The translations under genes were made by a program, and so were the position numbers. Of a DNA stretch of 64,000 nt, positions 5,713 to 55,939 are shown one piece after another. The DNA comes from Escherichia phage vB_EcoM_ESCO47. The first letter of the stretch is position 1, and every line of letters starts with the position of its first letter. The DNA lies in sequence record OM386662.1. One strand, written 5' to 3'. The notes beneath the pieces are model-generated. The model was not told where the DNA came from, ran no database searches, and was given only the letters and a program-made list of their open reading frames with translations.

Positions 5713-6714
5713 ATGAGTAAATTGGAGAATAAAATGTTCAACGTTCAAATCAAAAAAGGTATCTATCGTAATAACGAAATCTCTGGTTCTTATGTCGCCA
5801 CAAAGACCTGGTTCCCGGCAAAGCTTAATCCTGAGTGTTCTCACCTCGGTGATGGTAAAGTTTTCATTATGATTGATGGTTCTGAACGTGGAGTATGGGT
5901 CTTTAAATCAGATATCGTTATGGAAGGAGTTGAGACCTCTCCAGTTACAGTTGTTGAAAGCAACGAAGACATGAAAACTCGTATCAATAAACGCTTTAAA
6001 GTAATGAATATGATGACGAATGGCATTATCAATGGCAAAATTCGTTCACTCATTATTTCAGGTGCAGCTGGTATTGGTAAAACGTATTCTCTGGATAAAG
6101 CACTTAATAACGCTAATGATAATGGTTTCATCAAATACAAAAGCATTAATGGTAAAATCTCTGGTATTGGCCTTTACGAACAACTTTGGCTCAACCGTGA
6201 TGCAGACAGCGTTCTCTTAATCGACGACGTTGATGTATTCTCAGATATGGACATCTTGAACCTTCTTAAAGCAGCATTAGATACTGGTGATAAACGCAAA
6301 GTTTGTTGGAGCACTGCGTCATCTTATCTCGATGATAAGGGTATTGATAAAGAATTTGAGTTTGAAGGTACTATCGTTTTCATTACAAACGTTGATATCG
6401 ATAAAGAGTTAGAACGCGGTTCGAAACTTGCTCCACACCTTCAGGCTTTAGTATCTCGTTCAGTGTATCTTGACCTTGGAGTACACTCTAATGAAGAGAT
6501 TATGGTTCGAGTTGAAGATGTAATATTATCTACTGACATGATGCAGAAACGTGGTCTGACTGATGCAGAAACGTATAAAGCATTATCTTGGATGAAGGCT
6601 AACGTATCTCGTCTTCGCAATGTATCATTACGTACGGCTCTTTATGTAGCAGATTTTATTTCAACTGATAAAGATGGTTGGGAGGAAATCTCTGAAGTAA
6701 CTTTACTGAAATAA
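5713..6714 (+). CDS. P-loop ATPase (AAA-like)
   Basis: Walker A GAAGIGKT and Walker-B-like LLIDDVD. Confidence 0.55.
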   Translation: MSKLENKMFNVQIKKGIYRNNEISGSYVATKTWFPAKLNPECSHLGDGKVFIMIDGSERGVWVFKSDIVMEGVETSPVTVVESNEDMKTRINKRFKVMNMMTNGIINGKIRSLIISGAAGIGKTYSLDKALNNANDNGFIKYKSINGKISGIGLYEQLWLNRDADSVLLIDDVDVFSDMDILNLLKAALDTGDKRKVCWSTASSYLDDKGIDKEFEFEGTIVFITNVDIDKELERGSKLAPHLQALVSRSVYLDLGVHSNEEIMVRVEDVILSTDMMQKRGLTDAETYKALSWMKANVSRLRNVSLRTALYVADFISTDKDGWEEISEVTLLK

Positions 6715-6852
6715 GCTTATAGGAAGTTCTGAGATAACAAAAGCCATAAAGATGAATAATCATATGGCTTACCTCAAAGAAGGACACCAGGAACCTACTG
6801 AGGGCATAGAAATATTTAAAAATAATGATGTACAAATCAAAGAGGATATGTT

Positions 6853-7140
6853 ATGGATTTTATGCAAAAAATTAAAGCCGCAGTCGAACTCTATGCTCAT
6901 CGTATGGTTAGTTCTACGATGCAATATAGCGAGGAGGTTCGCCAGGACTCTTCCTTGAAAGGAAAAACTAAAGCCTTAATTACCTTAGATCGTTTGCAAA
7001 AGAATGCCGTAGAGATGCTCCAGTACGACAAGGGTGTATATAAGAAAGAACAGGAAGAGAAACTTAAATCTGAAAAATTAAAGAAAATCCCGAAGTCGGT
7101 TTGGTTCAGTGGAAAAAATACCGAAAAAAGTTTCTTTTAG
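6853..7140 (+). CDS. Hypothetical protein
   Basis: 95-aa ORF; overlapping alternative ORF 6752..6958 is less likely. Confidence 0.35.
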   Translation: MDFMQKIKAAVELYAHRMVSSTMQYSEEVRQDSSLKGKTKALITLDRLQKNAVEMLQYDKGVYKKEQEEKLKSEKLKKIPKSVWFSGKNTEKSFF

Positions 7141-11842: not shown

Positions 11843-12316
11843 ATGTTATTATCAGGCGCAAAATATAAAGAAGAAAAACAAAAATTTTATGATGCACAGA
11901 ATGGTAAGTGTCCTATTTGCCACCGTGAATTAGACCCTGATGTTCAAGGTAACCATCTTGACCACGACCACGAATTAAACGGGCCAAAAGCCGGTAGAGT
12001 TCGTGGATTACTCTGTAATCTGTGCAACGCAGCAGAAGGTCAAATGAAGCATAAGTTCAACCGTTCCGGTCTTAAAGGCTGTGATGTCGACTACCTAGAA
12101 TGGCTTGAAGCTCTTCTTGCTTATTTGAAACAAGATTATTCTGATAATAATATCCATCCTAATTTTGTTCCAGACAAAACTAAAGAGTTCTCAAGACTAT
12201 GTAAAGAGGAAATGATGGCTGAGATGCTTCAAAGAGGATTTGAATATAATGAATCTGATACTAAAACACAATTAATAGCTTCATTCAAAAAGCAGCTTAG
12301 AAAGAGTTTAAAATGA
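11843..12316 (+). CDS. 49: Endonuclease VII (Holliday-junction resolvase)
   Basis: 157 aa; CPICHREL...HLDHDHEL...CNLCN zinc/HNH-like motifs as in T4 gp49. Confidence 0.85.
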   Translation: MLLSGAKYKEEKQKFYDAQNGKCPICHRELDPDVQGNHLDHDHELNGPKAGRVRGLLCNLCNAAEGQMKHKFNRSGLKGCDVDYLEWLEALLAYLKQDYSDNNIHPNFVPDKTKEFSRLCKEEMMAEMLQRGFEYNESDTKTQLIASFKKQLRKSLK

Positions 12317-14130
12317 AAATCGAAAAAGAAATTGAAGGATTAATTCATAAAACTAATAAAGATCTTTTGAACGAGAATGCTAATAAAGATTCTCGTGTTT
12401 TTCCAACTCAACGGGACCTTATGGCTGGTATTGTGTCTAAGCACATTGCCAAAAATATGGTCCCGTCTTTTATTATGAATGCGCATGAAAGCGGAATCAT
12501 TCACATGCATGATATTGATTATTCTCCTGCTCTTCCGTTTACTAATTGCTGTTTAGTCGATTTAAAGGGGATGCTTGAGAATGGATTTAAATTAGGCAAT
12601 GCTCAAATTGAAACGCCTAAATCTATTGGCGTTGCTACTGCAATTATGGCACAAATTACTGCACAAGTTGCTTCACACCAGTATGGCGGAACTACATTTG
12701 CGAATGTTGATAAAGTTCTTTCTCCTTATGTTAAACGCACATACGCTAAACATGTTGAAGATGCAGAAAAATGGCAAATACCAGACATTCTGAATTATGC
12801 TCAATCCAAAACAGAAAAAGATGTCTATGACGCATTCCAAGCTTACGAATATGAAGTGAACACGTTATTCAGTTCAAACGGACAAACTCCTTTTGTTACT
12901 ATAACATTTGGAACAGGAACTGATTGGACTGAACGAATGATTCAGAAGGCAATTCTTAAAAACCGCATTAAAGGCCTTGGTCGTGATGGAATAACTCCTA
13001 TTTTTCCTAAACTTGTTATGTTTGTTGAAGAAGGTGTTAATCTTTATAAAGATGATCCGAACTATGATATTAAACAGCTTGCTCTAGAGTGCGCAAGCAA
13101 AAGAATGTATCCTGATATTATTTCAGCTAAGAACAATAAAGCTATCACTGGCTCATCTATTCCTGTTTCTCCAATGGGTTGCCGCAGTTTCTTGAGTGTG
13201 TGGAAAGATTCAACCTGTAATGAAATTCTTGACGGACGTAATAATCTCGGTGTTGTAACACTGAATCTTCCTCGTATCGCATTGGATTCTTATATTGGAA
13301 CACAGTTCAATGAACAGAAATTTATCGAATTATTTAATGAACGAATGGATTTATGTTTTGAAGCTTTGATGTGTAGAATTAGTTCCTTAAAAGGAGTTAA
13401 AGCGACTGTTGCTCCTATTCTTTATCAAGAAGGTGCATTCGGGGTTCGTCTTAAACCTGATGACGACATAATTGAGTTATTTAAAAACGGTAGAAGTTCA
13501 GTGTCTTTGGGATACATTGGTATTCACGAATTGAATATTCTTGTTGGACGCGATATTGGGCAAGAAATTTTAACTAAAATGAATGCTCATCTTAAACAGT
13601 GGACTGAAAGAACTGGATTTGCTTTTAGTTTATATTCTACTCCTGCTGAAAACCTTTGTTATCGCTTCTGTAAACTCGATACAGAAAAATATGGAAGTGT
13701 AAAAGATGTTACCGATAAAGGTTGGTACACTAACAGTTTCCATGTTTCAGTAGAAGAAAATATTACTCCATTTGAAAAGATTTCTCGTGAAGCGCCATAT
13801 CATTTCATTGCGACAGGTGGTCACATTTCTTATGTCGAACTTCCTGATATGAAAAATAACTTAAAAGGACTTGAGGCTGTGTGGGATTATGCTGTACAAC
13901 ATTTAGATTATTTTGGTGTTAATATGCCAGTAGATAAATGTTTTACATGTGGAAGTACCCATGAAATGACTCCTACTGAAAACGGATTTGTTTGTTCAGT
14001 TTGTGGAGAAACTGATCCTAAAAAGATGAATACCATAAGAAGAACATGTGGTTATTTGGGAAATCCGAACGAACGCGGATTTAATCTAGGTAAAAATAAA
14101 GAAATCATGCATAGGGTTAAACACCAATGA
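12313..14130 (+). CDS. nrdD: Anaerobic ribonucleoside-triphosphate reductase
   Basis: 605 aa; C-terminal glycyl-radical region and CxxC...CxxC zinc ribbon; uninterrupted. Confidence 0.9.
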   Translation: MKIEKEIEGLIHKTNKDLLNENANKDSRVFPTQRDLMAGIVSKHIAKNMVPSFIMNAHESGIIHMHDIDYSPALPFTNCCLVDLKGMLENGFKLGNAQIETPKSIGVATAIMAQITAQVASHQYGGTTFANVDKVLSPYVKRTYAKHVEDAEKWQIPDILNYAQSKTEKDVYDAFQAYEYEVNTLFSSNGQTPFVTITFGTGTDWTERMIQKAILKNRIKGLGRDGITPIFPKLVMFVEEGVNLYKDDPNYDIKQLALECASKRMYPDIISAKNNKAITGSSIPVSPMGCRSFLSVWKDSTCNEILDGRNNLGVVTLNLPRIALDSYIGTQFNEQKFIELFNERMDLCFEALMCRISSLKGVKATVAPILYQEGAFGVRLKPDDDIIELFKNGRSSVSLGYIGIHELNILVGRDIGQEILTKMNAHLKQWTERTGFAFSLYSTPAENLCYRFCKLDTEKYGSVKDVTDKGWYTNSFHVSVEENITPFEKISREAPYHFIATGGHISYVELPDMKNNLKGLEAVWDYAVQHLDYFGVNMPVDKCFTCGSTHEMTPTENGFVCSVCGETDPKKMNTIRRTCGYLGNPNERGFNLGKNKEIMHRVKHQ

Positions 14131-14597
14131 ATTATGATAGATTTTATCCTTGTGATTTTGTGAATGGCCCTGGTTGCAGGGTCGTTCTTTTCGTTACAGG
14201 TTGTTTGCATAAATGCGAAGGGTGTTATAATAAATCAACATGGAATGCTAGAAATGGTATTCCATTCACTGGTGAAACACTAGAACAATTAATTGAATGT
14301 TTGAATAATGATTATATAGAAGGATTGACTATAACCGGAGGTGACCCTCTCTATCCTGATAACAGAGATGTGATTCACTCCGTGGTTCAAACTATTAAAA
14401 ATCTTTATCCAAATAAAAGCATTTGGTTGTGGACAGGATATAAGTTTGAAGATATTAAACAACTAGAAATGCTTAAATATGTTGATGTTATTATTGATGG
14501 GAAGTATGAGAAAAATCTTCCGACCAAAAAACTGTGGCGAGGATCAGATAATCAGCGACTTTGGTCAAATACCGATGGGGTGTGGAAACATGATTAA
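14127..14597 (+). CDS. nrdG: Anaerobic RNR activating enzyme (radical SAM)
   Basis: 156 aa; CDFVNGPGCRVVLFVTGCLHKCEGC radical-SAM cysteine motif. Confidence 0.85.
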   Translation: MNYDRFYPCDFVNGPGCRVVLFVTGCLHKCEGCYNKSTWNARNGIPFTGETLEQLIECLNNDYIEGLTITGGDPLYPDNRDVIHSVVQTIKNLYPNKSIWLWTGYKFEDIKQLEMLKYVDVIIDGKYEKNLPTKKLWRGSDNQRLWSNTDGVWKHD

Positions 14598-29475: not shown

Positions 29476-30108
29476 ATGAAAACCACTCCTATTACTATCG
29501 CAATTGACGCAATCGTAAAGCAAGCTTCATCTCTGGCTACTATGGCTAAAGTAATTAGTCAAAATTCAGCTCGATACAATGCCATTCTTGAAACCTTGCG
29601 ACGTCCTGGTCTGAGTAATTATGAAAGTCGTGTAATTATTACCGGTGTCGGTAAAAATGCTAATATCGCAACTAAAGCTTCTGAAACATTTGCTTCACTC
29701 GGTATCCCGAGTATGTACTTGAACACTGGGCATTATTCTCACGGTGATGCAGGATTCATTGCGCCTAATGATGTGTTGATTCATATTAGTCGTTCTGGTA
29801 AAACTGAAGAAATGATTGGCGTGGCTAAGCATCTTAAAATGATTCGTCCGAACGTCAAACAGATTCTGTTGCATTGTAACCCGGACATTCCACAAGAAAA
29901 TGAAGCCCTTTTTGATTACTCTTTCTGTACAGGCATCGCAGTAGAGGTTGATGAGAATTCTCTGGCTCCGACTATGTCAACTACATTGTTGTTAGCGCTT
30001 ATCGATACGTTTGCTATCAACCTTTCATCTGAACGTGGATTTACCTCTAATGACTTCCTTAAGTTCCACCCTGGTGGTGCACTAGGTGCCATGTTACGAG
30101 GCGAATAA
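29476..30108 (+). CDS. SIS-domain sugar-phosphate isomerase, KdsD/GutQ-like (putative arabinose-5-phosphate isomerase)
   Basis: VIITGVGKNANIATKASETFASLG...HGDAGFI...ISRSGKTEE...LAPT.STT...HPGGALG parallels the KdsD SIS domain; no CBS domains. Confidence 0.65.
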   Translation: MKTTPITIAIDAIVKQASSLATMAKVISQNSARYNAILETLRRPGLSNYESRVIITGVGKNANIATKASETFASLGIPSMYLNTGHYSHGDAGFIAPNDVLIHISRSGKTEEMIGVAKHLKMIRPNVKQILLHCNPDIPQENEALFDYSFCTGIAVEVDENSLAPTMSTTLLLALIDTFAINLSSERGFTSNDFLKFHPGGALGAMLRGE

Positions 30109-30251
30109 TGAAAGCAATAGCAATAGGACTTTTACTATTGATGCTTGTTATGACTATCTACTGGAGCTTAACTGCTCCAGTAATGGTTCCGACTCTTATA
30201 ATCGGATGGATTATGATTGGACTACAAGCAAAGTATGAATGCTTTAACTAG
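30108..30251 (+). CDS. Small membrane ORF (47 aa)
   Basis: TAATG coupling to SIS gene; two hydrophobic segments; below ORF-track cutoff. Confidence 0.3.
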   Translation: MKAIAIGLLLLMLVMTIYWSLTAPVMVPTLIIGWIMIGLQAKYECFN

Positions 30252-30292
30252 AATAGTGTACAATACTCCTACTTACCAATGAGGACCACAAC

Positions 30293-31978
30293 ATGAAAAA
30301 AGCTGTTATTCTTGGTGCTGGACTGGCAACTCGTTTGTATCCAATAACGCATCATATTCCTAAGGTGCTTGTTAACTATAAACAAGACACTATTCTGAGC
30401 AATTTGTATACAATTTATTCTGATCTTGGCGCAGACGAAATTATTGTAGTAGTTCATTCAAAATTTGCTGAAACTGTTCGAGCTTATTGTGAGCAAGAAG
30501 GGTTCAATGTGACTATTCGTACAGTTGATGAAGCGTATGGATCTGCTTATGCTCTTGCTAAATTACACAAAGATTTAGACGGCCATAATGTAATTGTTAA
30601 CTGGTGTGATATTATTCCTGATTTTGGTTCATGGTCATGGAATGTTAACGCAATCTATGTTAAGGGCGACGAATGTCGATATAATTTCGACGGTGAAAAT
30701 ATCACTAACGTAGGTTCAACAGGTGGTAATGTTGTAGGAATTTATCAGTTCAAAGACTGGGAATTCTATATGGGTTCTACCGATGAGGAAATTCATGAAT
30801 ACTGCAAAGGACGTGATTTCGTAGAATTCCTTTACGGCAGCGCATTCAATAAATCAGAGCTTATGAATCTAATTGATTTAGGTGATATGCCTAAACTTGA
30901 AAAAGCTCATGAAGTTCGTGAACTTAATCGTAGTTTTAATGCAGTTGAAATTGGTGAAGAAACTGTAACTAAATTCGCATTAACCGAACAGGGTCGAGCT
31001 CTTCAGAAAGATGAGATTTCATGGTATCTTAAAGTGAAATCAGATTCAGTTCCTCAGTTAGTTTCTGTTAATGAAAATAACTTTGAAATGGAACGCATTA
31101 AAGGTAGGCCGGCATTTGAATATATTAAATCCAAATCAAGTCTTGCTCGTCCACAAATTGTTGATGCAATTTTAGATGCACTGAAATTCAGCACAGACAC
31201 TTATTTTGTAAGTCCTGAAACTGTTCGTCGTGATTTCACTAAAGAATTCTATACTAAAGTTATTGATCGTTGTGAAAGCATTCAACCATTGATTGATTCA
31301 TTTGGTAAAATCACACATGTGAACTACACCAAGATTGGACGTCTGAAGCCAATGCTGAAACAAGCTTTAGAACACCTTATTCGTTATCATAACCGTTCTC
31401 AGGGACAGTACTCTGTTATTCATGGTGACCCGAACTTCAGTAATACTATGATTACTGATAACGGCGAAGTCAAGTTTATCGACCCTCGTGGATATTTTGG
31501 CGAAACCAAGATTTACGGCCCGAAATTGTATGATGAAGCTAAAGTGCTTTATGCTGTTTCAGGTTATGATGAATTCAATGCTAATCCGACCTGGGGGCAG
31601 TTTACTATTGATGAAACAACTTGTAATGTGTCTATTAACATCAATCCATTAGTTTACAAATATGGAAAGATGAGTTCGTTTAACGAGTATCATCATTTGG
31701 CAGTGGCAATTATCTGGATTGCATTAGGTGGTTATTTCAAGAATAATCCACTTAAAGCGGTAGCCGCATATTATAAAGGTATGGAACTTCTGACTAAGCA
31801 ATTACGTAACATGGGCCGTGTACTTCAGGACGGCTCTATTAGTTATGACGTAGCAGAACCTGTAACGGCTACACTGATTACAAAAAATCCTGGTAAATGG
31901 GTACTAACTGATAAAGAAACTGGTGTTTCCTATCGTCCAATCGGTGGCGATATCACTCATCAATGGGAACGAATCTAA
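30293..31978 (+). CDS. Bifunctional sugar-1-phosphate nucleotidyltransferase (N-terminal) / kinase-like (C-terminal) protein
   Basis: N-terminal AVILGAGLATRLYPIT...PKVLV nucleotidyltransferase signature; C-terminal HGDPNFSNTMI...FIDPRGYF resembles the APH/choline-kinase catalytic loop. Confidence 0.6.
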   Translation: MKKAVILGAGLATRLYPITHHIPKVLVNYKQDTILSNLYTIYSDLGADEIIVVVHSKFAETVRAYCEQEGFNVTIRTVDEAYGSAYALAKLHKDLDGHNVIVNWCDIIPDFGSWSWNVNAIYVKGDECRYNFDGENITNVGSTGGNVVGIYQFKDWEFYMGSTDEEIHEYCKGRDFVEFLYGSAFNKSELMNLIDLGDMPKLEKAHEVRELNRSFNAVEIGEETVTKFALTEQGRALQKDEISWYLKVKSDSVPQLVSVNENNFEMERIKGRPAFEYIKSKSSLARPQIVDAILDALKFSTDTYFVSPETVRRDFTKEFYTKVIDRCESIQPLIDSFGKITHVNYTKIGRLKPMLKQALEHLIRYHNRSQGQYSVIHGDPNFSNTMITDNGEVKFIDPRGYFGETKIYGPKLYDEAKVLYAVSGYDEFNANPTWGQFTIDETTCNVSININPLVYKYGKMSSFNEYHHLAVAIIWIALGGYFKNNPLKAVAAYYKGMELLTKQLRNMGRVLQDGSISYDVAEPVTATLITKNPGKWVLTDKETGVSYRPIGGDITHQWERI

Positions 31979-32364
31979 TGCACCGTGTAGAAAACATGCT
32001 TAATCTTTGTTTTGATGTCGATGATTGCATCACGGAATGGAATAACACTCGTGATTACGTGAACTTCAAGCCAGACAGCGAAATGGTGTCTGCTATTAAT
32101 GCCTTGTATGATGCAGGGCATACCATAACGCTTTACACTGCTCGCGGTATGAAGTCGGTAGGTCCTGGTCGTATAGCAATTGACATTCTCCCAAGTCTGA
32201 TTCAGAACTTGGAAAACATTGGTTTGAAGTACCATAATTTGCTAACACATAAACCAGTATATGATTGGATTATCGACGACAAAGCTATGCGTCCTGACGA
32301 ATTCAAAGCTCTTATGAATAAAGGCGAATTCGAAACATTTAAATCATATAAACCTAATCTATAA
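31978..32364 (+). CDS. Small HAD-like phosphatase (putative)
   Basis: LCFDVDDCIT (motif I-like), HTITLYTARG (motif II), YDWIIDDKA (motif IV-like); TAATG coupling. Confidence 0.45.
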   Translation: MHRVENMLNLCFDVDDCITEWNNTRDYVNFKPDSEMVSAINALYDAGHTITLYTARGMKSVGPGRIAIDILPSLIQNLENIGLKYHNLLTHKPVYDWIIDDKAMRPDEFKALMNKGEFETFKSYKPNL

Positions 32365-32421
32365 TAATTTAAGTAAGACCTGCAAAAACCATCGCGTCAA
32401 TTAACGTGAGATGCAAAAAAA

Positions 32422-33582
32422 ATGAATACTTTTAAAATCGGAACGAATTTTGATTTAGCTCTTCTTGATAAAATCGTAGAGCTCAATAAAACTTATCCTA
32501 ATAGCTTAATAAACGAAGTATACGGCTCTACAAGAGAAATGGCTTTTGTAGCAGCCAGACCTGATTTTAGGCTTCCTGACGTTGACAAAAAGATGTTAGA
32601 AGATTACGTTAAACGTTGTAACGAATTAGGTATTTGCTTTAACTATACACTCAACACGATAAATCCTGGTTCAAAAAGAGAACTAGTTGAGTGGAAGAAG
32701 AAAGCTATTCAGGATTATGTTCAGTATCTTTGGTCAATAGGCGTATGGCGTATTACTATCGCTAACCCTGTTGTTATGGAAATTGTTCGTGAAGTCAATA
32801 AAGACATTGAGATTGAAGTTTCAACAATTCTACATGTCGATGCTGTAACTCAAATCAAATACTTGCATGACCAATATAATATTAAAAAGGTCTGTTGCGG
32901 AATTCATAAGAACCGTTCAGTTTCTTTCCTGAAGCGTGCAGCAGAGTTTTGCAATAAGAACAATATAATATTTGAAGTTCTTGTAAATGAGTTCTGTTCT
33001 AATGCTGGTAAAGGGTATACAACACATTGTAGTTATCGTGACTCTTGCTATATTTTCCATAGTACTGATGTTACAGTTGATGATGCTAAATCCTTAAACG
33101 GATATCCAATGCAACACTGCATTAAAGCTCGTGATACAGACCCATTTAACTGGTTGAGAACTCGTTTTGTTCGTCCTCAAGATTTGAAACTTTATAATGA
33201 TATTGGTATCACTCAATTCAAAGTTTCAGGACGTACAGGTAGCACAGACTACATTTTGAAAGTTCTTGAAGCATACGCTTCTGAAAAGTTTGAAGGTAAT
33301 TTGTTAGAACTGTGGAAGCCTTTAGAGACTATTTTCACTCTTGAAAATGAAACTGAGTTTTCACATACAGTAAATATTGAAACCTCTTTGTTAGATGGCT
33401 TTTTAGAAAAAAGGTGGTTCAGACATCCAGATTTCGATTGTGCTAATGAAATCTGCGGGACGACGTGTACATATTGTGAAAGATATTATAAACGTCAATT
33501 ATCTAAAAACGGGTTATCAGAAAATTCTATATCTATTATTGATATAACTAACTCTGATGACGCTTTGAGGTACCCGGAATGA
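32422..33582 (+). CDS. Peptidase-U32-family protein (PrtC/RlhA/TrhP/UbiU-like putative Fe-S enzyme)
   Basis: Architecture and blocks ITIANPVVMEIVRE, IEIEVST, IFEVLVNEFCSNAGKGYTTHCSYRDSC parallel the U32 core as I recall it. Confidence 0.5.
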   Translation: MNTFKIGTNFDLALLDKIVELNKTYPNSLINEVYGSTREMAFVAARPDFRLPDVDKKMLEDYVKRCNELGICFNYTLNTINPGSKRELVEWKKKAIQDYVQYLWSIGVWRITIANPVVMEIVREVNKDIEIEVSTILHVDAVTQIKYLHDQYNIKKVCCGIHKNRSVSFLKRAAEFCNKNNIIFEVLVNEFCSNAGKGYTTHCSYRDSCYIFHSTDVTVDDAKSLNGYPMQHCIKARDTDPFNWLRTRFVRPQDLKLYNDIGITQFKVSGRTGSTDYILKVLEAYASEKFEGNLLELWKPLETIFTLENETEFSHTVNIETSLLDGFLEKRWFRHPDFDCANEICGTTCTYCERYYKRQLSKNGLSENSISIIDITNSDDALRYPE

Positions 33583-33818
33583 TTTCTAGAAAAACTTTTA
33601 ACCACCAACTTAATGAAGAGATTTTGACTATGAAAATTAACAGCATCGAACAAATTCTTAAAAAGGCCCTTATGGGCCTGTTTGAAACTAAAGCGGCTAA
33701 AGTGATTAAAGAACCTGTTCAACTAGAATATTACGCTGATGCATTTCTTCATAGTGTTCTTGGAAGTATCGATGCTGAAGCTTTACGTTATATCAACATC
33801 GCTAAGAAATTCAAATAA
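33579..33818 (+). CDS. Hypothetical protein
   Basis: 79-aa ORF (alternative start ATG 33630). Confidence 0.35.
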   Translation: MISRKTFNHQLNEEILTMKINSIEQILKKALMGLFETKAAKVIKEPVQLEYYADAFLHSVLGSIDAEALRYINIAKKFK

Positions 33819-33860
33819 GCTTTATGAATTGAGTATATAATAAATTGTATTGAGGTAAAC

Positions 33861-34577
33861 ATGGGAAAACATAACACAATGAAATATATCAAAGCCGCAG
33901 ATTTTCAAGCCGCATTTAAAGCAGTCAATCGTGAAATTTTAGAAAACCCGGAATTCGTAACTGATTCTCGTATTGGTCGTTGTAATGAAATTGGGTCTAT
34001 GACAGTAGTTGTTGACACTCCATCATCATTCAAAATGACCGACCCACGTATTAACCGCATCTCTTATGAATATGCCGAAGACTTCTGGAAATTTATGATT
34101 TCTGGTGGTACTGATGCAGAAGAAGCATTTAAGGCATATCCTAACGTTGCTAAATTTATTTCTAAACCAAAATCAGATGCTTTGCCTGCGAACTTCAACA
34201 CTTTCTATGGTCCTCGCATTGCGGCCCAATTACCAACTCTTCTAAAAGAACTTAAAGAGAAGCCTAACTCTCGAAGAGTTGTGTTCCAAATTCTAGAAAG
34301 TTCTGATCAGGCTTTGCTTGATTCGGACGAAACACTTGAATATCCATGTACTGACTCGGTGACTTATTATATTCGCGATGGTAAGCTTTATACCCACTGT
34401 CATATGCGTTCTCAGAACTGTGCTGTTGTTATGCAGTTGGATTTTTATCTCCAAGGAAAATTACTTCATTATATCGCTAACGAATGTGGTGTAGAAGTTG
34501 GTGATTATACTCATACCATGGTAAGTGCCCATGTGTTTGAACGTGATTTTGATTATGTTAAAGGATTCCTTGACTAA
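33861..34577 (+). CDS. 42: dCMP hydroxymethylase gp42 (thymidylate-synthase family)
   Basis: 238 aa; EYPCTDSVTYYIRDGKLY...HMRSQN thymidylate-synthase-like catalytic Cys region; position as in T4. Confidence 0.8.
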   Translation: MGKHNTMKYIKAADFQAAFKAVNREILENPEFVTDSRIGRCNEIGSMTVVVDTPSSFKMTDPRINRISYEYAEDFWKFMISGGTDAEEAFKAYPNVAKFISKPKSDALPANFNTFYGPRIAAQLPTLLKELKEKPNSRRVVFQILESSDQALLDSDETLEYPCTDSVTYYIRDGKLYTHCHMRSQNCAVVMQLDFYLQGKLLHYIANECGVEVGDYTHTMVSAHVFERDFDYVKGFLD

Positions 34578-35476
34578 TGGCTATTTTCCGCGTACCTATC
34601 TTGAGTATGCGGTCTTATGAAACCGGACAGTATGCTATCCTTAAGGATGGCAACTTCCAACTTCATTTGCACCGTGCTAATCCAGGTGATGTGATTACAT
34701 ATCCACGTAATGCATCTGATATTAAAGAATGTGAACGTCTTTTCCCAGAATTTAAGTTTGTTCCATTATGGTATAAAGATAACGCGTATAACACTCGTAA
34801 ATATTTCTGGTCTGAAAATGAATTTGTGGTTGATTCATTAATTGCTTATTATGATTGTGATTTTCTAATCACAGATATCACTGGATATGATGGTGTTTTT
34901 GATGTAGAATTCAATTTCAATATCACTGCAGACCCTAATAAACCACGTTTTTATATTGACGAATTCTTAAAAACCGATATGTTGTCGGTTAATCGTTCAC
35001 TTCAAACTACTGTGTTGAATGAACGTCAAAAAGAAGTGCTGGTTAACGCAGGTGCAGATGGTAATAAGATTATCGTAACGCAGAAAGTTATACGTCCTTC
35101 CATCATGCAGCGTCTTGTAGGTGATTTGGCTCCTATTCATCTAGATGGTATTTTTCATCCATTTCGAATTAGTGACCCGTGCTATCGTTTTGAACAAGTG
35201 GTTGAATGTGCAATTCAATTAGGCCAACCACTTTATATAACCGATCCAAATAATAGCTTCGACAGAAATAAGTATCCTGAAGAAGCGCTGATTCGAATTT
35301 TTAAACCAACTAAAACTGAGTACTATCAAATTCTTAAAGGACGTCCGAAGATTCAATATTTCGAAAATCCTGAAGAAGTATTCCATCCAGGTCTTGGTGA
35401 GTTCATCTACTTTAACGCTTTAATTTCTTCGCCGTATAATATACCTAAATATGAAGATGTCGTAATCGAGGAATAA
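34577..35476 (+). CDS. Unknown 299-aa protein in the T4 beta-glucosyltransferase position (candidate DNA glycosyltransferase)
   Basis: ATGGC overlap with gene 42 stop; no resemblance to T4 beta-gt as I recall it; function inferred from position only. Confidence 0.3.
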   Translation: MAIFRVPILSMRSYETGQYAILKDGNFQLHLHRANPGDVITYPRNASDIKECERLFPEFKFVPLWYKDNAYNTRKYFWSENEFVVDSLIAYYDCDFLITDITGYDGVFDVEFNFNITADPNKPRFYIDEFLKTDMLSVNRSLQTTVLNERQKEVLVNAGADGNKIIVTQKVIRPSIMQRLVGDLAPIHLDGIFHPFRISDPCYRFEQVVECAIQLGQPLYITDPNNSFDRNKYPEEALIRIFKPTKTEYYQILKGRPKIQYFENPEEVFHPGLGEFIYFNALISSPYNIPKYEDVVIEE

Positions 35477-43570: not shown

Positions 43571-43658
43571 AAATCCTCCTACGTTATAGGTTTATTTATG
43601 CTTTTTATCAGGTTTGGTATAATTAACATCTCTTAAACATGAATTGAAAGGAAATAAA

Positions 43659-44180
43659 ATGGCGCACTTTAACGAATGTTCACAACTGATTGCTGGTGTT
43701 GATAAAGCTGAAGAAGCTTATTTTAATGCTCTTATTCACGAAGATAAAGACCCGTTGCAGGTAATGCTTGATATGCAGAAATCTTTACAGGTTCGTCTGG
43801 CAAATGACAAGCCTGAACATAACAAACATCCTGATGAATTGGCCACTGCTGGTGAAGTCGTTGATTGGCTACGCAATCAGAAAGATTATATTGACGATGA
43901 ATTCCGTGAACTTCTGACTTCTCTTGGTGGTATGAGCAATGGTGAAAAAGCCGCCAGCAGTGTATGGAAGCCGTGGAAGGCGCAACATGCTGAATATCGA
44001 AATCGTCGTATCGATGAACTGTCTCCTGAAGACCAGCTTGAAATCAAATTTGAAATGATTGATATTCTCCATTTCGTTCTGAATATGTTCCAAGGTCTTG
44101 GTCTTACTGCTGAAGAAATCTTTAAATTGTACTACCTGAAGAACAAACATAATTTTGAACGCCAGGATAATGGATATTAA
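43659..44180 (+). CDS. 56: dCTPase/dUTPase gp56 (MazG-like)
   Basis: 173 aa from MAHFNEC; position between 61 and soc as in T4. Confidence 0.75.
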   Translation: MAHFNECSQLIAGVDKAEEAYFNALIHEDKDPLQVMLDMQKSLQVRLANDKPEHNKHPDELATAGEVVDWLRNQKDYIDDEFRELLTSLGGMSNGEKAASSVWKPWKAQHAEYRNRRIDELSPEDQLEIKFEMIDILHFVLNMFQGLGLTAEEIFKLYYLKNKHNFERQDNGY

Positions 44181-54838: not shown

Positions 54839-55939
54839 ATGAAAGTTATGTTTATCCCATCTCGTGCAGTCCCATTTAATCCTGACCGTGTACAAGGTGG
54901 TCTTGAAGCGGTACATTTAAATGTGTTGAAATATTTAGTTTCTATCGGTGCCGATATTGATTATATCGGTTTTGATAACGACACATTTGGTGATTGGAAA
55001 GTTACACACCATCCTGTTGGCCATCTTACTAAATTCAGTCTAGGTATGAGTTATACTATGGCTCGTAAGATTGTTGAACTGGCCGGCATCCATGAATACG
55101 ATTTTGTTGTTACTATGGAACCGACTAAACTAACCGTTCAGGCAATTAAAGACGCAGGTCTCTCTAAAGTTCATAAGAATTTTATGGCAACACCATTTGA
55201 ACCTGTATCTCGTGGCATTGTTCAAATTTGGGACCAGACTATTCAAATTCATAAGAACGGTGGTAAGAGTTATGCTCCTACTAAAGCCTTCCGTGAATTT
55301 GAACGCAAATATTGTCATATGACTTCAGGTCTGACAGACAAAATTGATTATGATTATTGGCGAGCAAATCCGTTGTTTGAAGCCGAAGATTATCCGGTTA
55401 TTTGTTTGAATGAGAAACCTGAAGTTCTTCCAGCAACTGATCTGATTATTAGTGCACAACGTTATGACACTAAAATGCGTCGTACTGATGTTGCTCTTGA
55501 AGCGATTAAAGCGCTCGGCGAAAATGGTGCAGGATACTGTCCTAGTAAATGGGCACCACCGGCTAAGTATCCAGTAACTATTGATGCTCCACATAGTGAA
55601 ATCATGGAACGCCTTAAAACAGCTAAAGCACTTATCAATACGTGTCCTGACACCGGCACGGTAGAGAATAGTTCTATTGAAGCTATTTCTAAAGGTGTAC
55701 CTGTGATTCAGCTAGTCTTTAAAGATTATCCACATGCTACGTTTGAATATGACCCTGACACGGTACGTGTAGAGATTGATGCTTCCACCCCTAAGAAAGA
55801 AGTAGTTATGCTTTACACAAAAGCTGTATTAGAATTCACTGACACATACGAATCACGAGTCAAACGTGCAGAATATGTATGGCAAAAGTATAATCGGGAT
55901 GCAGTTGTAGCGATGTGGGATAAAATCTTCACAGCGTAA
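54839..55939 (+). CDS. GT-B (GT4-like) glycosyltransferase, candidate DNA hmC glycosyl/arabinosyl-transferase
   Basis: N-terminal MKVMFIPSR...GGLEAVHLNVLKYL and C-terminal ENSSIEAISKGVPVI resemble GT4 motifs; lies between 39 and rIIA. Confidence 0.55.
   Translation: MKVMFIPSRAVPFNPDRVQGGLEAVHLNVLKYLVSIGADIDYIGFDNDTFGDWKVTHHPVGHLTKFSLGMSYTMARKIVELAGIHEYDFVVTMEPTKLTVQAIKDAGLSKVHKNFMATPFEPVSRGIVQIWDQTIQIHKNGGKSYAPTKAFREFERKYCHMTSGLTDKIDYDYWRANPLFEAEDYPVICLNEKPEVLPATDLIISAQRYDTKMRRTDVALEAIKALGENGAGYCPSKWAPPAKYPVTIDAPHSEIMERLKTAKALINTCPDTGTVENSSIEAISKGVPVIQLVFKDYPHATFEYDPDTVRVEIDASTPKKEVVMLYTKAVLEFTDTYESRVKRAEYVWQKYNRDAVVAMWDKIFTA

Follow-up and report, generated by a model that had tools for sequence, protein, structure and literature searches.

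A U32-family protein in the DNA-modification locus of a T4-like Mosigvirus as a candidate oxygen-independent cytosine hydroxylase

The U32 gene and its product

The 64,000-nucleotide stretch of Escherichia phage vB_EcoM_ESCO47 analysed here (OM386662.1; "the window" below means this whole 64-kb stretch) belongs to a T4-like Mosigvirus and carries a gene for a U32-family protein, whose probable part in the synthesis of hydroxylated cytosine without oxygen is the subject of this report. The gene lies in a 6.7-kb locus that is 97% identical to that of RB69 and of phage moha, and it is a single ATG-started open reading frame (ORF) of 386 aa, orthologous to RB69 gp50 (99.5% identity), by which name its product is called throughout. 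The gene, its principal motifs and the small gene that follows it are:

32422..33582, plus strand: U32-family protein gp50, with a TIM-barrel U32 domain and a Cys-rich C-terminal tail
32986..33048, plus strand: U32 signature region NEFCSNAGKGYTTHCSYRDSC, residues 189-209, with invariant E190, C192, C203 and C209
33439..33477, plus strand: CX4CX3CX2C cluster (C340, C345, C349, C352), invariant in a 32-member alignment
33579..33818, plus strand: gp49, 79 aa, with an ATG that overlaps the stop codon of U32 (ATGA)

Residues 94-286 of gp50 match the Pfam profile PF01136 (Peptidase_U32) with 42.4 bits (E 6.3e-11; gathering cut-off 22.4 bits), over profile positions 2-192 of 233; the same domain is precomputed on gp50 homologues, and the protein is assigned to phrog_5757. 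Alignment by hhalign of 32 gp50 family members with Escherichia coli UbiU, UbiV, RlhA and TrhP gave a probability of 96% (E 2.7e-9), with profile-level similarity also to RlhA alone (E 3.8e-5), whilst the best NCBIfam match, UbiU, is very weak (E 5e-4, 19 bits) and a sequence search of the PDB with gp50 as a single protein returned no match. An AlphaFold2 model (pLDDT 90.3, pTM 0.89) has as its top Foldseek match in the PDB the U32 protein Mk0906 (5d88; E 1.2e-7, TM 0.68 on target), below which all matches are generic TIM barrels. A preliminary description made from the letters alone had placed the gene in the U32 family and named a profile search and a structure prediction as ways of checking it; both came out in its favour, the first above the gathering cut-off and the second with a U32 protein as the closest known structure.

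The family is large (1182 representatives at E-values up to 1e-3), and many of its members are of about 360 aa and 50-58% identical to gp50. A search for informative domain fusions among the longer homologues yielded no more than an intein insertion and a single DUF2621 tail, neither of them informative. The intein (Intein_splicing / Hint_2) interrupts P0186, a 699-aa metagenomic U32 homologue, and ends just before a Cys-rich stretch similar to the C203-C209 region of gp50; inteins typically occupy conserved sites of replication and nucleotide-metabolism enzymes.

Ten cysteines are invariant in an alignment of 32 homologues reaching down to 46% identity: C158, C177, C192, C203, C209, C233, C340, C345, C349 and C352. 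By hhalign, C203, C209 and C233 (codon at nt 33118-33120) fall on UbiU C169, C176 and C232, and E190-F191, C203 and C209 fall on E161-F162, C169 and C176 of RlhA, both of whose cysteines are essential (PMC5727448). Three of the four ligands of the UbiU [4Fe-4S] cluster (C169, C176, C193, C232) thus have an aligned counterpart in gp50; the fourth lies in an unaligned gap, and the invariant C192, C177 and C158 are candidates for its place in a cluster that gp50 would bind. The C-terminal CX4CX3CX2C motif is a possible second metal or Fe-S site, and C-terminal cysteines are also required in RlhA (PMC5727448). Near the end of the barrel, K267-V-S-G270-R271 aligns with the K-I-E-G-R motif of UbiU and RlhA, and K267, G270 and R271 are invariant among the same 32 proteins. 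The classical PROSITE signature of the family reads E-x-F-x2-G-[SA]-[LIVM]-C-x4-G-x-C; the gp50 version is E-F-C-x10-C-x5-C, and the literal pattern goes unmatched because of an insertion and an extra Cys. The parallel that had been drawn at the outset between this Cys-containing segment and the U32 hydroxylases holds, in that C203 and C209 align with Fe-S or essential cysteines of UbiU and RlhA.

The DNA-modification locus

The locus is flanked by the DNA polymerase gene upstream and UvsX downstream. Its other genes, and those elsewhere in the window that bear on them, are:

29476-30108, plus strand: SIS-type arabinose-5-phosphate isomerase (Pfam, PHROG)
30293-31978, plus strand: bifunctional nucleotidyltransferase/kinase (Pfam, PHROG)
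31963-32364, plus strand: HAD phosphatase (Pfam, PHROG)
33861..34577, plus strand: gp48, thymidylate-synthase (TS) homologue (Pfam Thymidylat_synt, E 1.9e-15)
34577..35476, plus strand: gp46:47-type DNA arabinosyltransferase 1 (phrog_3891; assignment from PMC13326640)
35478..36026, plus strand: gp45, thymidylate-kinase-like nucleotide kinase (phrog_761; PMC13326640 Table 1)
43644..44180, plus strand: gp56-type dCTPase, dUTPase_2 / MazG-like (Pfam PF08761)
12313-14130, plus strand: NrdD, anaerobic ribonucleotide reductase (Pfam NRDD, E 8e-171)
14127-14597, plus strand: NrdG activase (Fer4_12 / Radical_SAM)

The first three genes (29476..32364) form the branch to UDP-arabinose, as in the AfhE/AfhF pathway of HY126 (PMC13326640). 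The window's gp48 is 99% identical to RB69ORF048c and has the D169N/N177D signature; gp50 shows neither this signature nor any similarity to TS profiles, and would be an analogue of gp48 in function only. The gp56-type dCTPase supplies dCMP and removes dCTP, and NrdD/NrdG show the phage to be equipped for replication without O2. The gene order from isomerase to gp45 kinase agrees with the initial placement of the U32 gene inside a DNA-modification locus, and the anaerobic ribonucleotide reductase that had been reported with it is present as listed.

The chemistry that this locus serves has recently been redefined. RB69 DNA contains mono- and di-arabosylated 5-hydroxycytosine (5hoC) rather than 5-hydroxymethylcytosine (NAR 2026, PMC13326640), and the enzyme behind 5-hydroxy-dCMP is gp48, a flavin-binding homologue of TS, which by 18O2 labelling draws the oxygen from O2 (PMC13326640). 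Isomerase, bifunctional kinase/uridylyltransferase and phosphatase suffice for the route to UDP-arabinofuranose (PMC13326640), and Acinetobacter phage DLP3 makes tri-arabinosyl-5hoC from a cluster without a U32 gene (PMC13326640). The first impression that a U32 protein is unneeded for a simple NDP-arabinose route accordingly agrees with the published pathway, with DLP3 and with the U32-less cluster of Dhakavirus WG01 described below. Moreover, the published structure of the RB69 base holds no extra chemistry calling for another redox enzyme. The same paper lists RB69p050 in its Table 1 as 'sugar or heterocycle reductase', from the match to 5d88, and its discussion names RlhA and TrhP/TrhO as unrelated to gp48, drawing no connection to gp50 (PMC13326640). 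A literature search, with two relevant papers outside its reach, found no paper that gives gp50 a function or links a phage U32 protein to prephenate or 5hoC; the paper on the Thanatos phage does not discuss its U32 gene, and a phage Tn-seq preprint gives no results for single genes of LC53. In a phage that also has NrdD/NrdG, a U32 gene next to that of an O2-dependent hydroxylase of cytosine C5 suggests a second, anaerobic route to the same intermediate.

Some further features of the window deserve mention. The intergenic stretches before gp48 (33819-33860) and before the U32 gene (32365-32421) hold AT-rich TATAATAA-like boxes, and the Shine-Dalgarno sequence is a strong GAGG for gp48 and a weak GAG for U32. 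A 366-aa ORF at 54839-55939, between topoisomerase gp39 and rIIA and with no Pfam match, occupies the reported position of the second arabinosyltransferase (RB69p003), for which it is a candidate by position only.

Linkage of U32 genes to chorismate mutase

In related phages the U32 gene has as a neighbour the gene for chorismate mutase, the enzyme that forms prephenate. Serratia phage LC53 and Enterobacter phage Entb_45 have an AroQ chorismate mutase gene whose start overlaps the U32 stop codon; the two proteins score 44.6 and 40.9 bits on Pfam CM_2 (cut-off 27), and the best PDB match of the phage enzyme is 1ybz (E 6e-15). A six-frame translation scan of 17 T4-like loci found, in 15, a chorismate mutase at most about 750 nt downstream of U32, its ORF abutting or overlapping the U32 stop in nine of the 15, with the gene order U32-chorismate mutase-TS or U32-gp49-chorismate mutase-TS; the two loci without it are the Mosigvirus locus and L005. 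Homologues of the T4-like chorismate mutase occur in 54 of 50,697 phage records, all 40 among the matches listed being T4-like phages of Enterobacterales or Shewanella, and most of those listed are annotated as beside U32 and TS genes. Outside the T4-like phages, 9 of 42 loci have, at a distance of up to about 2.2 kb from U32, a chorismate mutase or a fusion of it to 3-deoxy-D-arabino-heptulosonate 7-phosphate (DAHP) synthase.

In Mosigvirus the slot downstream of U32 is filled by gp49 alone, which could be a partner protein of U32. It is a conserved protein of 57-79 aa with a DAFxHS..G motif that stands between U32 and chorismate mutase in several genera, with genes of this type at about 9137-9400 in L006, L011, L014 and L018, and some Mosigvirus copies are called as 47-58 aa in the database. 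Its (R)INHxLNE motif recurs in an N-terminal extension of the LC53-type chorismate mutase. The idea that gp49 is itself a diverged chorismate mutase was considered and rejected: hhalign against the phage enzymes gave 13%, over the N-terminal 10 residues with that motif only, its PDB profile matches are unrelated and include no chorismate mutase, and its AlphaFold2 model is a two-helix hairpin (pLDDT 73) unlike AroQ. The AroQ chorismate mutase has a three-helix fold.

The DAHP-synthase::chorismate-mutase fusions (type I-beta-like in their DAHP-synthase part) lie near U32 in uncultivated phages, at L035:6411-7433, L038:6321-7376, L055:6922-7956 and in L039, and a phage-encoded entry into the shikimate pathway is unusual. 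A DAHP-synthase-like gene without the chorismate mutase domain is present at L063:11145-11891 and in L025. A human-faecal contig (MT837090) has a homologue of the fusion without U32, which is uninformative here.

Distribution of U32 genes among phages

Among cultured phages, U32 occurs in 221 records, and all host genera among the matches listed are facultative anaerobes: Escherichia, Klebsiella, Shigella, Serratia, Proteus, Yersinia, Enterobacter, Providencia, Edwardsiella, Pectobacterium and Shewanella. Members of the gp48 family occur in 373 phage records, including 57 of Acinetobacter and 20 of Rhizobium, neither of which is among the ten leading host genera named for the 221 U32-bearing records. 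Both gp48 and U32 are present in 17 of 17 T4-like loci fetched, and U32 in cultured phages is seen only in records of genera with the gp48/5hoC locus.

Phages outside the T4-like group were represented by 42 U32 loci (25 IMG/VR contigs, 6 metagenome contigs and 11 GTDB genome contigs) at 40-58% identity to the U32 protein. All 11 GTDB contigs belong to anaerobe-associated lineages, those of the genome contigs being Erysipelotrichales, Oscillospiraceae, Romboutsia, Gastranaerophilaceae, Tannerella, a Phocaeicola faecalis isolate, Woesearchaeota, BRC1 and Planctomycetota. A sensitive TS profile, run with hmmsearch --max at E-values up to 10, detected a gp48-type enzyme within 8-10 kb of U32 in none of the 42 loci. 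The sole TS near a non-T4 U32 gene, at L026:3491-4357, is ThyA-like and keeps D169 and N177; it lies directly upstream of a glycosyltransferase gene and may be either a standard thymidylate synthase or an enzyme directed at dUMP.

A gp46:47-type glycosyltransferase is encoded in 25 of these 42 loci, often overlapping the U32 start, and two layouts recur. Type I comprises the glycosyltransferase, SIS isomerase, nucleotidyltransferase/kinase, an optional DAHP-synthase::chorismate-mutase, a KdsC-like HAD phosphatase and U32. Type II runs from primase through a MazG/dUTPase_2-type, dCTPase-like protein, a TMK-like kinase and the glycosyltransferase to U32 and DNA polymerase III alpha; the unit from the dCTPase-like MazG to Pol III alpha is carried by at least eight loci, in which arabinose-nucleotide genes were not found within 8-10 kb. 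Judged by its gene content, Type II corresponds to the T4-like set of gp56, gp45 and gp46:47 with U32 in the slot of gp48, and since it has no arabinose-nucleotide genes, U32 would track the base pathway and not the sugar pathway. Nucleotide metabolism is likewise represented on a 466-kb contig, with dCMP deaminase, thymidylate kinase and uracil-DNA glycosylase (UDG) alongside U32, and on another, where the neighbours are NT5C, a PnuC-like transporter and a deoxynucleoside kinase.

Several of these contigs hold gene combinations of separate interest. At L062:3044-7137 (the Phocaeicola faecalis isolate) and L002:5135-9098, GP88 (PF17338), a methyltransferase and a protein of about 265 aa precede U32, the methyltransferase of L062 being fused to a guanylate-kinase domain and the unit of L002 being followed by NT5C, a PnuC-like transporter and a deoxynucleoside kinase; the arrangement suggests a nucleotide that is hydroxylated and then methylated, perhaps to a 5-methoxypyrimidine. 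Some 5 kb downstream of the main U32 gene, L002 and L053 encode another U32-like paralogue that has diverged much further (L002:13227-14360, L053:13224-14357); in L002 it comes after a radical-SAM/SPASM gene and before a nucleoside 2-deoxyribosyltransferase-like gene. In L064 (11098-12000 and 15073-16179), the gene after U32 encodes a TAGT-like (Tet-associated) DNA glycosyltransferase, and a UDP-galactopyranose mutase (GLF) is present on the same contig, an enzyme that is listed for the 5hoC phage RL38J1 (PMC13326640), hinting at galactofuranosyl-5hoC in an uncultivated phage. Genes of the UDG family recur beside U32 in the large uncultivated contigs L001, L025 and L063 (L063:4203-4733, 6358-6942), sometimes in two copies and interleaved with glycosyltransferases.

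Proposed function and its alternatives

Wherever a role is known for a U32 protein, it is linked to hydroxylation that uses no O2 and depends on prephenate, and two such proteins act on pyrimidine C5 (PMC5727448, PMC6599085, PMC10990095). Against this background gp50 is probably (at a rough probability of 0.6) a hydroxylase of cytosine C5 that is O2-independent and prephenate-dependent and yields the same product as gp48. It would be a stand-alone Fe-S enzyme acting on cytosine C5 without O2, with the oxygen atom coming from prephenate as has been proposed for RlhA, TrhP and UbiU/V. Its substrate would most likely be dCMP from the phage dCTPase, and its product 5-hydroxy-dCMP, the same intermediate as that of the flavin- and O2-dependent gp48, which would go on to be phosphorylated, built into DNA by the phage polymerase and arabinosylated there. 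Two routes would thereby lead to one intermediate, gp48 with O2 and gp50 without it, the U32 route alone being retained in phages of strict anaerobes and the gp48 route alone in those of aerobes. The preliminary description had left a choice between sugar, nucleotide and base as the target of an anaerobic modification; comparative evidence now favours the base, at the nucleotide level, over the sugar.

The closest competitor would leave the chemistry as it is and move it to the polymer, so that gp50 hydroxylates cytosines already in phage DNA as a prephenate-dependent proofreading or back-up activity. There is precedent in RlhA and TrhP, the nucleic-acid enzymes of the family, which use polynucleotides in the form of folded RNA, and in many loci the U32 gene does stand between a DNA glycosyltransferase and the replicative polymerase. 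However, gp50 is minimal, with none of the extra RNA-binding domains of RlhA (DUF3656) or TrhP, and the constant neighbours of U32 are mononucleotide enzymes (dCTPase, nucleoside monophosphate kinases, dCMP deaminase, NT5C, deoxynucleoside kinase). It is because of this architecture and these neighbours that we infer dCMP rather than DNA as the substrate; full replacement of cytosine is, besides, usually reached at the nucleotide level, and action on the polymer is given an outside chance. A slim one attaches to a place in the sugar branch, where gp50 would be a redox enzyme on arabinose or a nucleotide-sugar intermediate, in keeping with the reductase label of PMC13326640 and with one database annotation as 'putative enzyme involved in UDP-arabinose biosynthesis'. 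The gene has the HAD phosphatase on one side and the base enzymes on the other, and homologues of isomerase, nucleotidyltransferase/kinase and phosphatase accompany U32 in 14 non-T4 loci. Yet UDP-arabinofuranose synthesis is explained without gp50, DLP3 has the same sugar-base linkage and the Dhakaviruses the same sugar genes without U32, and at least eight loci join glycosyltransferase and U32 with no arabinose-nucleotide genes in the range searched. Nor is there a rationale in sugar chemistry for the link to chorismate mutase, and no U32 member is known to have a sugar substrate.

The U32 substrates known so far are all host molecules, such as tRNA U34, 23S rRNA C2501 or ubiquinone precursors, and the very weak NCBIfam match to UbiU would fit an enzyme directed at them, its position in the locus being coincidental. 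That coincidence is hard to reconcile with the confinement of U32 in cultured phages to genera with the gp48/5hoC locus, with the presence of both genes in every T4-like locus fetched, or with the overlap or abutment of the U32 gene and a DNA glycosyltransferase gene in uncultivated phages; gp50 also has neither the substrate-binding extensions of RlhA and TrhP nor a UbiT or UbiV partner, and a host target is accordingly judged slimmer again in its prospects. A genuine peptidase or collagenase, as the historical family name and annotations such as 'peptidase' and 'collagenase-like protease' would have it, is barely credible in view of the ten invariant cysteines and of the linkage of the gene to chorismate mutase and to genes for nucleotides and DNA modification, and a catalytic peptidase mechanism is known for no U32 protein (PMC5727448).

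It is worth setting out together what weighs against anaerobic hydroxylation of dCMP by gp50. Its function is proposed on comparative and predicted-structure evidence, and hydroxylation by U32 proteins has not yet been demonstrated in vitro (PMC10990095). Some 40 E. coli phages, Dhakaviruses for example, carry gp48 and the arabinose genes without U32, and the cluster of Dhakavirus WG01 has a kinase in the U32 slot; U32 is therefore accessory, and not obligatory for a gut coliphage. No chorismate mutase was found in any frame of the window, nor any DNA homology there to the chorismate mutase gene of Entb_45, and gp49 has no CM_2 match at E-values up to 10; the enzyme has been lost from the Mosigvirus clade, whose prephenate would therefore depend on host PheA/TyrA. 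In the sequence alignments, only three of the four UbiU Fe-S cysteines are matched, and the phage proteins depart from the PROSITE-type motif. For the non-T4 loci, the search that found no TS-type hydroxylase reached 8-10 kb around U32 and not whole uncultivated genomes, and the uncultivated phages with glycosyltransferase and U32 are known here from their genes and not from their DNA chemistry. As U32 stands with sugar genes in many loci, linkage by itself would also fit a sugar-side role. Finally, the DAHP-synthase-like domain, which scores 134 bits on DAHP-synthase models and 47 on those for 3-deoxy-D-manno-octulosonate 8-phosphate (KDO8P) synthase, all below curated cut-offs, is conceivably a KDO8P-synthase-like enzyme using arabinose-5-phosphate, a role that the copies without a chorismate mutase domain leave open.

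Significance and comparison with known systems

The DNA chemistry of RB69-type phages was revised to arabinosyl-5-hydroxycytosine only in 2025-26, and the only hydroxylase known for it depends on O2. Should gp50 act as proposed, this would explain how gut phages carrying an anaerobic ribonucleotide reductase modify their DNA anaerobically, and it would add DNA precursors, and viruses, to a use of prephenate as organic oxygen donor that has been newly discovered for RNA and quinones. Whether gp50 and its relatives of about 360 aa are the first viral U32/prephenate hydroxylases and the first to act on a deoxynucleotide, giving an O2-free route to 5-hydroxycytosine DNA that is the sole route in phages of strict anaerobes, seems to us an evenly balanced question. 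Many uncultivated phages of anaerobes would in that event be predicted to have 5-hydroxypyrimidine-based DNA made through U32 alone, and with it a large and as yet unexplored range of 5-hydroxypyrimidine DNAs, glycosylated or derivatised in other ways, in phages of gut Bacillota, Bacteroidota and others. As its proposed substrate is a small soluble nucleotide, an enzyme of this type could be the first U32 hydroxylase to be reconstituted in vitro, and would offer a tractable model for a reaction that never has been. Oxygen regime and host aromatic-amino-acid metabolism could furthermore affect the protection from restriction of therapeutic phages of the Mosigvirus type.

Amongst known proteins, Mk0906 of Methanopyrus kandleri (5d88) is the best structural match to the gp50 model, as also reported in PMC13326640, but it is 11% identical to gp50 and consists of a 247-residue core without the Cys-rich tail. 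The 5-hydroxy-dCMP synthases gp48, DLP3 gp80 and that of HY126 share with gp50 the proposed product and have kinase and glycosyltransferases in common with it, and gp48 and gp50 stand together in the RB69-type locus; they differ in fold (TS against TIM barrel), in the dependence of gp48 on flavin and O2, and in distribution, gp48 being present in phages of aerobes and not found within 8-10 kb of U32 in those of anaerobes. RlhA (YdcP) is required for ho5C2501, the 5-hydroxycytidine of 23S rRNA, and needs prephenate and Fe-S biogenesis (PMC5727448). It resembles gp50 in its U32 domain and in essential E161, C169 and C176 that correspond to E190, C203 and C209; it needs additional C-terminal cysteines, and its product, 5-hydroxycytosine, is the one proposed for gp50. 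Unlike gp50, which is virus-encoded among deoxynucleotide enzymes and has 386 aa with a CX4CX3CX2C tail, it has 653 aa with a DUF3656 domain and acts on a ribosomal precursor.

UbiU and UbiV are [4Fe-4S] U32 proteins for which prephenate is the oxygen donor, as proven by 18O labelling (PMC10990095), and they form an anaerobic alternative to the flavin monooxygenases UbiI, UbiH and UbiF, much as gp50 would to gp48; they differ in acting as a heterodimer with a lipid-binding partner, UbiT, on a polyprenyl-phenol, whereas gp50 is a single polypeptide with ten conserved cysteines. TrhP, needed for 5-hydroxyuridine in tRNA (ho5U34; PMC6599085), and TrhO show one and the same pyrimidine C5 hydroxylation entrusted to an O2-dependent enzyme and to a U32/prephenate enzyme, with tRNA uridine as the substrate and a rhodanese-like protein in place of the flavin-dependent TS homologue as the O2-using partner. 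Organisms that live in both oxic and anoxic settings keep both, and obligate anaerobes are without the O2-dependent one (PMC6599085). The pattern that emerges from our analysis, with both routes in phages of facultative hosts, U32 only in those of anaerobes and the O2-dependent enzyme only in those of aerobes, would mirror the arrangement of TrhP and TrhO, and of UbiUV and UbiIHF.

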